A stretch of 64,000 bases of DNA from Candidatus Hodarchaeota archaeon (GTDB lineage: Archaea > Asgardarchaeota > Lokiarchaeia > Sigyniarchaeales > SOKP01). Of the stretch, positions 3,356 through 63,616 are shown piece by piece (the stretch's first letter is position 1; the number at the start of each line of letters is the position of its first letter). The notes under the pieces were generated by a model. It did no database searches. It was not told the origin of the DNA and worked only from the letters and a program-made list of their open reading frames with translations. The stretch spans positions 39,532-103,531 of the forward strand of contig JBHLKM010000002.1 of the NCBI GenBank assembly GCA_048886685.1, in the 5' to 3' direction. The position numbers and the translations under genes are program-made.

Positions 3356-3622
3356 CTTATTTATTGAACCCCAATATCCTAATTTTAAACCTCTTATACC
3401 CAAATATCAGAAAAAAATTCACTTATTTATAATTAACACTTCTTTCCTTATTTCACGTGAAAAAAGGGAATTGATTAATAATCTCAAGAATTTCTATTTT
3501 CAAACAAACAAAGTAAGGATACGAGAAAATAGCGAAATCTAACAAATAAGTATATCTATATACTTTGTTTGAATAATAATTAATCATATAGCAAAAGAAG
3601 TTGATTAAAAATTTCAGAACAA

Positions 3623-4708
3623 TTGTGGCAAAAGGTAACAAGAAATTTTGTAAATGCAGGAGGTGCGCCTATCCCTATAAGTGATACACTAATAAAGCTA
3701 ATTCAGATTCTAGTTAATGAAGATCAAGCAAAATTTCTATTAATTTTTAGGAAGCGTGCATTAAATATTGACCAGATTAAAACTAAAACCGATTTAGACG
3801 ATATAGCACTAAAAAAGATGCTCAATGAATTAATGGATAATGGGATAATAACTGGAATTCCAAGTAGGAGTACTGGAATTATGGTTTATTCTTTAGTGTC
3901 TGTCCTTCCGGGTTTAATGGAGTATCCTTTTATGAGAGGTGAAAAAGGTCAAAAACAGAAGGAACTAGCTAAATTAATGGATAAAATATTTGATGAATTG
4001 AGCCACTTAACTCAAAGTAATTACGAAGTACTTGTGGAGCAATTTAAGGGTGGAAATCCATTGGATAGGGTCGTACCTGTTGAAGAGGAACTCGAACCAT
4101 ATCTAGACGTGGTGTTGCCTTATGAAGGCATTAAAAGTATTATAGAAAGAAATGAAATTATTAGTATTAATCATTGCTATTGTAGAAATTGGAAAGATAA
4201 TTTACAAGAACCATGTAAACTAGAAAGTCCTGAATTAAGTTGCTTTCAATTTGGGAGATACGCCCAATTTCTTATAGAACACAAATTTAGTAAGCCAGTT
4301 ACAAAAGAAGAAGCATTAAAAATATTGAAAGAAGCTGAGGATAATGGTCTTTTACACAAAGCTTTTCATGGGAGGAATCCTGGACAGGAAGAAGACGCAT
4401 TTTGTAACTGCTGTAGTTGTTGTTGCCAGCTTTTTCAACTTTATAAGCGAGGAATATTCCCTTTTCATACATTAACATATTATATAGTAAAAATAGATGA
4501 AACCAAATGCACAGGATGTGGAACTTGTGCTCAAAAATGTCCCATAGAAGCAATTGAATTAATAGATAATCTTTCTATCACTAATCTTGAGAGATGCATA
4601 GGTTGTGGGTTATGTGCTTATCATTGTCCTGAGAAAGCTAGGAGTTTAGAAAGAATAGGACTTAGAGAAGTGTGTATCCCCCCTCCACAAATAGTTCCGA
4701 TTAATTAA
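3623..4708 (+). CDS. 4Fe-4S binding protein (N-terminal HTH-like region, Cys cluster, C-terminal 2x[4Fe-4S] ferredoxin)
   Basis: HCYCR, CNCCSCCC, CTGCGTCAQKCP, CIGCGLCAYHCP; start may be ATT at 3611. Confidence 0.85.
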   Translation: MWQKVTRNFVNAGGAPIPISDTLIKLIQILVNEDQAKFLLIFRKRALNIDQIKTKTDLDDIALKKMLNELMDNGIITGIPSRSTGIMVYSLVSVLPGLMEYPFMRGEKGQKQKELAKLMDKIFDELSHLTQSNYEVLVEQFKGGNPLDRVVPVEEELEPYLDVVLPYEGIKSIIERNEIISINHCYCRNWKDNLQEPCKLESPELSCFQFGRYAQFLIEHKFSKPVTKEEALKILKEAEDNGLLHKAFHGRNPGQEEDAFCNCCSCCCQLFQLYKRGIFPFHTLTYYIVKIDETKCTGCGTCAQKCPIEAIELIDNLSITNLERCIGCGLCAYHCPEKARSLERIGLREVCIPPPQIVPIN

Positions 4709-4917
4709 AATTCTATTCGCACTAATTTTTATCTATGTATTCAATTTTAGCAGATATTAGTTATTAGCTATGAAATTATTATTTATCATTAAATAAGTTG
4801 TTTGCAAGTTTTTTTAACTTTCAAATGCTATTTATAATAATTAAAATAATATGGTAATTCCTTATCGGACGATTTAAACTCACTACTGTCAAATTTAAAG
4901 ATCTTGCACCCATTATT

Positions 4918-62036: not shown

Positions 62037-62798
62037 TTAAATTTCCACTGCATTGCTACCTTCAATGACTTTAACGTTAGAGATGTAAGGGATTTTTTGA
62101 ACTTCCGATAATAAGTCAACTTTCGATCCTGATTCTCTTGAAAATTCTCCACCTTTTTTGATGGTCAATAATTTTGTCTTTTGCTTAAAAGTAACTATGA
62201 AGCTAATACGATTGGTATTCTCATCTATCGAATCGATTCCTAGCATTGTATAATATTTCAAATGACGTACAAAGATAGGACTCAGGACTTCGACATAATC
62301 TTTAGAAACGGGAAAATCCAGTTCTAAAATATCTTGTGCTAAACCTTTCTGTCCGAATTTAGTATAAGTCATGAAGTACATTAAGAAACAACCAACACAA
62401 GTGAGCATGATGCCTACTATATAAAATCGAGTTCCGCAAGCCATTCCTACGGCCATTACAAAAAATATAAAACCAACATCCCTTGTTTCTTTTAGAGCAT
62501 TTCTGAATCTAACAATAGAAAGCGCTCCTACTAAGGTAAAAGCCCTTGCTATATCGGTCCCGATAATTATCATAATAATACCTACAATTACTCCCAATAA
62601 TACTAAAGTCTGAGTAAAATTTTGGGAATATGAGATACTTCGATGGGTTCCTCTATAGGTAATTCCGATAAGGATTGATAATATAATACTCCAAAAGAAG
62701 ACGATTATAACATCAGTCACTTCAATTGGACCTAGATTTGTACCTAGAGTAAAAAAAGAATCTTCAATGAATTTCTTGATAAAATCATTAAGCCACAT
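62037..62798 (-). CDS. DUF4956 family membrane protein
   Basis: SYSQNF, IARAFTLVGALSIVRFR, DVGFIF..AVGMACG. Confidence 0.85.
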   Translation of the reverse strand: MWLNDFIKKFIEDSFFTLGTNLGPIEVTDVIIVFFWSIILSILIGITYRGTHRSISYSQNFTQTLVLLGVIVGIIMIIIGTDIARAFTLVGALSIVRFRNALKETRDVGFIFFVMAVGMACGTRFYIVGIMLTCVGCFLMYFMTYTKFGQKGLAQDILELDFPVSKDYVEVLSPIFVRHLKYYTMLGIDSIDENTNRISFIVTFKQKTKLLTIKKGGEFSRESGSKVDLLSEVQKIPYISNVKVIEGSNAVEI

Positions 62799-62869
62799 AT
62801 TTGTTGAATGTTCTTATTATTAAATTAAGTTTACTGTATTTGATTATCTATAAGTTTTTGTTTTTAACT

Positions 62870-63616
62870 TCAGAATAATGCATAAACTCTTGTTTTTTCT
62901 AGCCCATTCACAAATTTAGAAATTTTATATTGTAAACAATTATTATTTTGAAGAATTTTTATAGCCCAATTAGGAATATAGTTGTTGAATTTTACTTCCA
63001 TAATACAAACTCCTTTAGGGATAACAAATTTTGATCCTCCACCAAAATTTAGATCAAGATTATAATTTCTTACCATCACATTTGTGTCAAAAGTCAATCT
63101 AAAAGTTTTCTCAAGTTTTGATATAAATGGTTGTCTTTTATAGGAAACAATGCAAGCAGGTTTTAAATTACACTTTTTATAGAGAAACCAAATTTCATTT
63201 AGTGAATTTTTATCTTGAGCAGATGCTTTATCATAAAAACTGAGAGCTTCACTATTATTTTCATCCAAAATTCTTAAAGCACTATCAAGCGGAACAATAA
63301 CTCTTCTTTTTGCGACATTATCATTTATCTTCTTTTTAATTTCAATAAAAGCAAATTCATTCTTAACTTTAGTAAAATCAGGGTAATACCTAATCCTTAA
63401 TTTGTGTCTTATTGCGACTCCATTTATTTTTTCAAGAAATGAATGATGGAAATTAGAATCAAAATATAAACTTCTTACTTCATAATCATAATTATTTATA
63501 ACATGAGGATCTAATCTCATAAAAGGACGAATATAATCTTTTATTCTATCACGTTCTTTTAAGGAGATTTGATATTTTATTTCAAATCGGTTGAAGTATT
63601 TTTGAAATTTCTGGAT
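62870..63616 (-). CDS. VTC domain (CYTH-like polyphosphate polymerase) protein, probable ATC start
   Basis: RFEIKY lies upstream of the track ATG; VRSLYFD, KLRIRYY, IEIK, RLTFD, MEVK, SKF. Confidence 0.88.
   Translation of the reverse strand: MQKFQKYFNRFEIKYQISLKERDRIKDYIRPFMRLDPHVINNYDYEVRSLYFDSNFHHSFLEKINGVAIRHKLRIRYYPDFTKVKNEFAFIEIKKKINDNVAKRRVIVPLDSALRILDENNSEALSFYDKASAQDKNSLNEIWFLYKKCNLKPACIVSYKRQPFISKLEKTFRLTFDTNVMVRNYNLDLNFGGGSKFVIPKGVCIMEVKFNNYIPNWAIKILQNNNCLQYKISKFVNGLEKTRVYALF

Follow-up and report, generated by a model that had tools for sequence, protein, structure and literature searches.

Start codons AUA, AUU and AUC behind Shine-Dalgarno motifs as probable main starts in a genus of Lokiarchaeia

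Animal mitochondria routinely initiate translation at AUA, AUU and AUC. In free-living prokaryotes such starts (AUH; ATH in DNA) have so far amounted to a handful per genome. The bacterial infC gene is autoregulated through its AUU start, and aIF1 of S. solfataricus discriminates against AUU (PMC4705826). In S. aureus, extended Shine-Dalgarno (SD) sequences accompany non-canonical starts at infC, cvfC1, ccpN and citZ (PMC13009471), and near-cognate initiation at AUA, AUC, AUU and CUG in E. coli runs at 0.1-3% of AUG (bioRxiv 10.1101/063800). For archaea, reviews list only AUG, GUG and UUG as starts and call SD sequences rare in Lokiarchaea (PMC7531240), and profiling in Haloferax set near-cognate sites aside as putative alternative sites, not main starts (PMC7261190). 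A literature search, with subscription papers outside its coverage, returned no report of AUH starts in Asgard archaea.

Here we analysed a 64,000-nucleotide stretch of DNA (the window; C2:39532-103531 of a 4.42-Mb assembly, 31% GC) from an archaeon whose IscU protein has its best matches in Promethearchaeota (Lokiarchaeia) genomes. An earlier note on this DNA had listed eight ATH codons (ATA, ATT or ATC, as distinct from the canonical ATG, GTG and TTG) as likely starts. All eight are present at the positions and in the context it gave (Table 1). No in-frame canonical codon separates any of these sites from its upstream stop, and the next one lies 4-103 codons downstream; conserved coding sequences have no usable ATG, GTG or TTG ahead of their conserved N-termini. 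The gene names agree with Pfam, whose profiles for VTC, HxlR and Abhydrolase begin 5' of the first canonical codon. The VTC and IscU codons (ATC 63616 and ATA 61106) are base-identical in contigs separately assembled from SRR30758825/27/28, the VTC start across three independent assemblies.

Table 1. Probable and possible non-canonical start sites in the window. Next canonical codon is given in codons downstream; posteriors come from the start-codon model described in the text.
Product	Start codon	Start position (strand)	Gene	Upstream context	Next canonical codon	Remarks
4Fe-4S protein	ATT, probable	3611..3613 (+)	3611-4708	TGA 3 codons up; GTTGA in SD register		TTG alternative 4 codons 3'
MFS protein	ATC, possible	4864..4866 (+)	4864-7140	stop 3 codons up; weak SD	+18	posterior 0.98
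MoaD/SAMP-like protein	ATA, possible	8122..8124 (-)				posterior 0.97; weak NCBIfam MoaD matches; alternative, in-frame GTGs within SD
RsmB/F-type RNA m5C methyltransferase	ATC	20415..20417 (-)	20417-19116		+41	
Alpha/beta hydrolase	ATA	27103..27105 (+)	27103-27879		+32	
HxlR regulator	ATT	37956..37958 (-)	37958-37596	TGA 3 codons up	+103 (codon 104)	120 aa
VWA protein	non-canonical start region	42581..42598 (-)	end 41474	overlaps MoxR-type AAA gene stop		candidates ATA 42586, ATC 42583, ATC 42598
IscU/NifU scaffold	ATA	61106..61108 (+)	61106-61498	GGTG 7 nt up; in-frame TGA 3 codons up	+6	
Second IscU paralog	GTT, probable	61612..61614 (+)	61612-61995	GGTG 7 nt up		absent from the earlier note's list
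VTC-domain protein	ATC	63614..63616 (-)	63616-62870	GGTG 7 nt up; TAA 2 codons up	+32	

The Pfam VTC domain runs from residue 9, with codon 33 the first canonical one, and close VTC orthologs carry ATT, ATA or ATC in the start column. Pfam HxlR spans residues 28-113, and five of five close metagenome orthologs have ATA or ATT in the same register behind GGTGA or CGTGA. All 17 aligned methyltransferase sequences have ATT or ATC, two of them with TAA immediately 5' of the codon. In the hydrolase, the start column interchanges with ATG: the 4 sequences that have GGTG 8 nt before it carry ATA, and the 9 that lack GGTG carry ATG. The codon at 3611, a weaker case on the original list, gained support from homologs with Met in this column (P0020, P0023, P0026 and P0031). 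The GTT of the second IscU paralog is ATT in 3 orthologs, and a TTG farther upstream sits 5' of the SD. At the VWA gene the 20 sequences that share the conserved N-terminus all require a non-canonical start, no SD is found, and the first canonical codon lies at about +59-60. The codon itself is ambiguous: the proposed ATC 42583 becomes GTC in 2 orthologs, and is at least equalled by ATA 42586, which is invariant in 20/20 and makes a 4-nt ATAA/ATAG overlap with the AAA gene stop; ATC 42598 is possible. The MoaD/SAMP-like start is likewise ambiguous.

Two further features of the window may be mentioned. The two IscU/NifU genes at 61106-61995 are tandem paralogs whose starts, ATA and GTT, are both non-canonical; they lie 3' of what is probably a cysteine desulfurase gene, at 57364. 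Three neighbouring small-GTPase-like genes (47-964, 1066-2043 and 2798-3355), two with weak TIGR00231 matches, encode eukaryote-like proteins typical of Asgard archaea.

The Met1 column of 57 distinct IscU orthologs holds 48 ATH codons (30 ATT, 16 ATA and 2 ATC), 7 ATG, 1 GTA and 1 TTG, and in 40/57 a stop lies within 10 codons upstream with zero intervening canonical starts. A GGTG-type motif stands in register in 47 of the 48 ATH orthologs, as opposed to 0/7 of those with ATG. Loki-type IscU proteins (77-84% identity) were also seen on contigs L045, L060, L064 and L069, which are labelled Chlamydiales, Thorarchaeota, Odinarchaeota and Nanopelagicaceae and are probably mis-binned or mislabelled.

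Genome-wide, we screened for forced starts using a coding-strand filter against antisense shadow ORFs. Of the codons 6-7 nt behind GGTG with no nearby canonical start, 63/88 were ATH where the background share is 15% (p = 2.7e-32), more than chance would give; canonical starts at the identical spacing numbered 85. The same test gave 12/18 when repeated on another genome from this genus and 32/35 in pooled Loki loci. Two of the checks suggested alongside the original list, an alignment of ortholog N-termini and a tally at SD distance, both came out in its favour, with ATH retained in IscU, methyltransferase and HxlR orthologs as given above. The SD motifs are complementary to the 16S 3' end with a spacing peak of 6-7 nt, VWA (no SD) and aIF1 (10 nt, suboptimal) departing from it; the anti-SD is standard archaeal in one genome of the genus and two of the order, the 16S of this genome being unassembled.

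We then fitted an expectation-maximisation start model, left free across all 61 codons. It assigned 74% of starts to ATG, ~10% to TTG, ~3% to GTG and 7.2% to ATH; beyond the canonical codons its picks were ATT, ATA and ATC, then CTG and ACG, each one mismatch from AUG. ATH made up 11.4% of SD-led genes versus 0.7% of non-SD genes, and 4.7% of starts in the second genome, against 0.4% in a spike-in control. Because the model, which is blind to SD-less cases, was off by 1-2 codons at IscU and aIF1, we quote the ATH share as 4-7%. SD energies per start class are circular and were excluded as proof, and a cross-gene paired test of SD strength gave no significant difference (n = 10, p = 0.37).

Orthologs supported these calls, 27/34 ATH calls aligning to ATH, ATG or TTG, 8 of these to ATG. 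Amino-acid identity was ~0.2-0.4 before the ATH codon and 0.5-0.8 from it onward, with ortholog stops upstream only, as in ATG genes. At most 16/442 ortholog pairs flip from ATG to ATH; since ATG genes seldom flip, the ATH genes form a stable class. The ATT:ATA:ATC split (~50:33:17) equals neutral usage, so the third base seems free among A, T and C. The gene of ribosomal protein uS10 is among the ATH starts; by sequence reading only, L7Ae, PurL and glutamate dehydrogenase would also start at ATH, and MCM at ACG. Probable ACG starts at SD distance were seen in four genes, and CTG in three, on contigs C1 (minus strand, an MCM-like gene of 1769 aa), C19, C23 and C24. Very probably, then, ~4-7% of genes in this genome and its genus, including a ribosomal protein and aIF1, start at ATH just behind an SD, an estimated 150-250 genes.

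Eight control sets were compared: six Asgard genomes, one Bathyarchaeon and mostly euryarchaeal loci, all small samples (200-400 kb) with non-independent kin. At 200 kb the 61-codon model lacks power, its estimates ranging from 0.1 to 3.3% when this genome was itself subsampled, and the controls therefore rest on motif tests. In the GGTG test the pooled sets yielded 5 ATH against 114 canonical starts, and a wider SD rule gave 15/273 in controls versus 85/344 here (Fisher p = 2.6e-11), with 12/146 in low-GC controls (p = 1e-5 versus this genome). Under the wider rule another Loki family reached 4/33 and one further Asgard family 5/39, and the trait may therefore be graded, with a lower ATH level in these two. 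Orthologs, forced-site enrichment, the second genome and the controls together support the earlier note's central claim, that third-position start selection is relaxed across the lineage; the relaxation is conditional, since in most cases the codon needs a strong SD ending 6-8 nt before it, and ~74% of genes continue to start at ATG.

Among the initiation factors, aIF1 stands out by its own start. It is forced to ATT in all 20 readable loci of the genus, where in-frame stops lie 2-4 codons upstream and the first canonical codon falls at residue 22-87; as with infC, the gene of a fidelity factor carries a conserved near-cognate start. The SD spacing of 10 nt is a poor register, and the protein is intact, with zinc knuckle and basic loop 1. 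Other Loki families start aIF1 at ATA, TTG, GTG or ATG, and in three other Asgard families it appears to use an SD-preceded ATA or CTG (L267, L270, L271, L276 and L278), while most use ATG. At the aIF1 5' end (contig C33) we also observed a five-codon GTG-started frame without SD (L001:1786-1806), whose TAA overlaps the ATT, and an in-frame TTG-TGA start-stop 4 codons upstream, both kept in 20/20 genus loci; these could explain the constant ATT through coupling or regulation. Since archaeal aIF1 rejects AUU in vitro, IF3 autoregulates via AUU, and aIF1 here is AUU-started with 10-nt spacing, a feedback loop is suggested. By this analogy the loop, running at a low set point, might be what sets stringency, and we put the odds of that at about even.

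We sought lesions in aIF1 loop 1, aIF1A, aIF2beta, the uS9 tail, KsgA, the initiator tRNA and the 16S 3' region, and found none. The initiator tRNA is ordinary (A1:U72, three G:C pairs, CAU). Of the factors that the earlier note had singled out for inspection, aIF1, aIF1A, aIF2beta and the initiator tRNA look normal, aIF1 being neither lost nor visibly crippled. A loss-of-proofreading state like that of Sui- or infC mutants found no support, the inspected landmarks of aIF1, KsgA, initiator tRNA and P-site rRNA being present and consensus-like (with the 16S of this genome not fully assembled). KsgA loss was dismissed as a cause, the gene being found in 38/40 genomes, and what looked like a variant position near 1338 of the 16S proved to be a false match of the search pattern. 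The aIF2gamma gene (C12:48795-50403) encodes a ~100-residue N-terminal extension resembling a helix-hairpin-helix domain plus linker; its open frames measure 484-535 aa in two Loki families versus ~422 in two other Asgard families. This extension is order-wide, hence not specific, and was discarded as a cause.

Decoding was examined in the same way. A variant code with ATA as Met was rejected, since internal Met columns keep ATG at 72-77% and ATA at only ~4%, and a tRNA-Ile(UAU) is present (C1:218424-218598, with three introns). TiaS (PF08489) was found in none of the searched Lokiarchaeia nor in five other Asgard families; its loss was rejected as a cause by a TiaS-less control with no ATH excess. 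A tRNA-Ile(UAU) without TiaS amounts to eukaryote-like AUA decoding, which does not track ATH starts. Many tRNAs carry introns at non-canonical positions and are misnamed by ARAGORN, which also calls a tRNA-Sec(UCA) (C1:221073-221165).

We consider it about 85% probable, judging from the sequences, that the ATH codons are genuine starts at which initiator Met-tRNA is accepted when an SD places the codon, with a threshold in this genus below that of other archaea. The leading alternative, which we regard as unlikely, keeps stringency ordinary and sees individually selected weak starts that damp expression (cf. pcnB, ccpN), merely more of them, with similar numbers hidden in other AT-rich prokaryotes. 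It would account for ATH starts being gene-specific and conserved, for the near-absence of ATG among SD-led IscU orthologs and for the slight excess in the two related Asgard samples, and it has a precedent in the S. aureus extended SD with AUA/AUU, at ~10% efficiency (PMC13009471). A count of some 150-250 genes, where S. aureus has four, is hard to fit to it, however, as are the presence of uS10, which is required stoichiometrically, and the far lower ATH share of low-GC controls; it is in part compatible with SD-directed mismatch initiation.

That an Ile-charged tRNA initiates at Ile codons, so that the proteins begin with Ile, is very improbable. Both Ile tRNAs of the genome, GAU and UAU, are elongator-type (G1:C72, without the three G:C pairs), ACG and CTG are used too, the column swaps with ATG, and the TiaS-less Asgard control shows 0 ATH versus 30 canonical starts; these points outweigh a codon set that is exactly the Ile box and tracks Ile codon usage, the failure to find TiaS, and the occasional GTH, which resembles an Ile-to-Val change. 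A further reading takes the downstream canonical codons as the true starts, or the genes as decaying pseudogenes or assembly errors. A downstream start would cost few residues at IscU (+6) and 3611 (+4), yet independent assemblies concur, and such starts would remove the zinc knuckle from aIF1, LIHG from the hydrolase and the domain that defines HxlR; conservation across dozens of genomes refutes this reading for the strong cases and leaves it hardly credible overall. The most far-fetched proposal is that mRNAs are edited to AUG, or that the GTG contained in GGTG is used with a frameshift: three distinct edits would be required, and among orthologs that GTG occurs in all three frames, often followed by a stop.

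In the mismatch-initiation reading that we prefer, the 16S 3' tail would pair with a GGUGA-type SD and so bring the codon that follows it by 6-8 nt into the P site. There the initiator Met-tRNA, of which there is a single one with anticodon CAU, would be accepted despite a third-base mismatch (AUA, AUU or AUC) and, more rarely, at ACG, CUG or GUH. The strength of the SD would compensate for the weak codon, which may be why ATH starts cluster in SD-led genes. We infer that the resulting proteins carry N-terminal Met. The proofreading threshold of the genus would be lower than in other archaea, its likeliest setter being aIF1, whose AUU-started mRNA in poor SD register could form an infC-like loop with a low set point. 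The full proposal is an Asgard lineage whose threshold is lowered through an AUU-initiated aIF1 loop, of a kind not described in archaea, and in which AUH codons behind a strong SD are regular main starts for some hundreds of genes, those of ribosomal proteins among them; it is tentative, at slightly less than even odds. Speaking against the preferred reading, infC has AUU without genome-wide AUH, and other Asgard families likewise have ATA or CTG starts at aIF1.

These starts matter for annotation. Gene finders restricted to ATG, GTG and TTG will cut ATH-started genes short; canonical-only calling loses a median of 21 codons, judged from 72 confident cases that have no canonical codon farther upstream. 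The expectation that standard callers truncate such genes held for the Logan calls, which shorten IscU to 124 aa and VTC to 216 aa, and for the VWA protein at NCBI, but NCBI records already begin IscU (130 aa) and VTC (248 aa) at the ATH codons given here and so have them full-length. N-termini lost from Lokiarchaeia proteomes affect phylogenomics, structure prediction and cloning. A lineage near the eukaryotic stem with several percent AUH genes and an intact, AUU-started aIF1 also offers a natural test of stringency control, and suggests that a/eIF1 autoregulation may predate eukaryotes.

Set beside known systems, the trait combines familiar parts. As in animal mitochondria, AUA, AUU and AUC are used, but there with leaderless mRNA, a modified wobble base and a reduced system, and here SD-led, with the standard code, in a free-living cell. 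Archaeal SD-led initiation shares the anti-SD and the factors, with similar spacing. Bacterial infC (IF3), with its AUU/AUA autocontrol, and eIF1, with its poor-context autoregulation (PMC4705826), resemble aIF1 here in that a fidelity factor's gene starts at a near-cognate codon which the factor discriminates against; the factor here is the archaeal aIF1, the feedback is putative, and AUH starts, otherwise limited to between one and four genes, reach several percent of the gene set. In S. aureus, too, a strong SD directs AUA/AUU initiation that is conserved between species, though at four sites and in a bacterial IF3 system, compared with an estimated 150-250 under aIF1/aIF2. ATG, GTG and TTG make up ~99.9% of annotated starts in 34 model bacterial genomes and ~87% here. 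The codon set and the mismatch chemistry are shared with E. coli and the alternative initiators of NCBI table 11; the chemistry was already known, and what is new here is its scale and its lineage.
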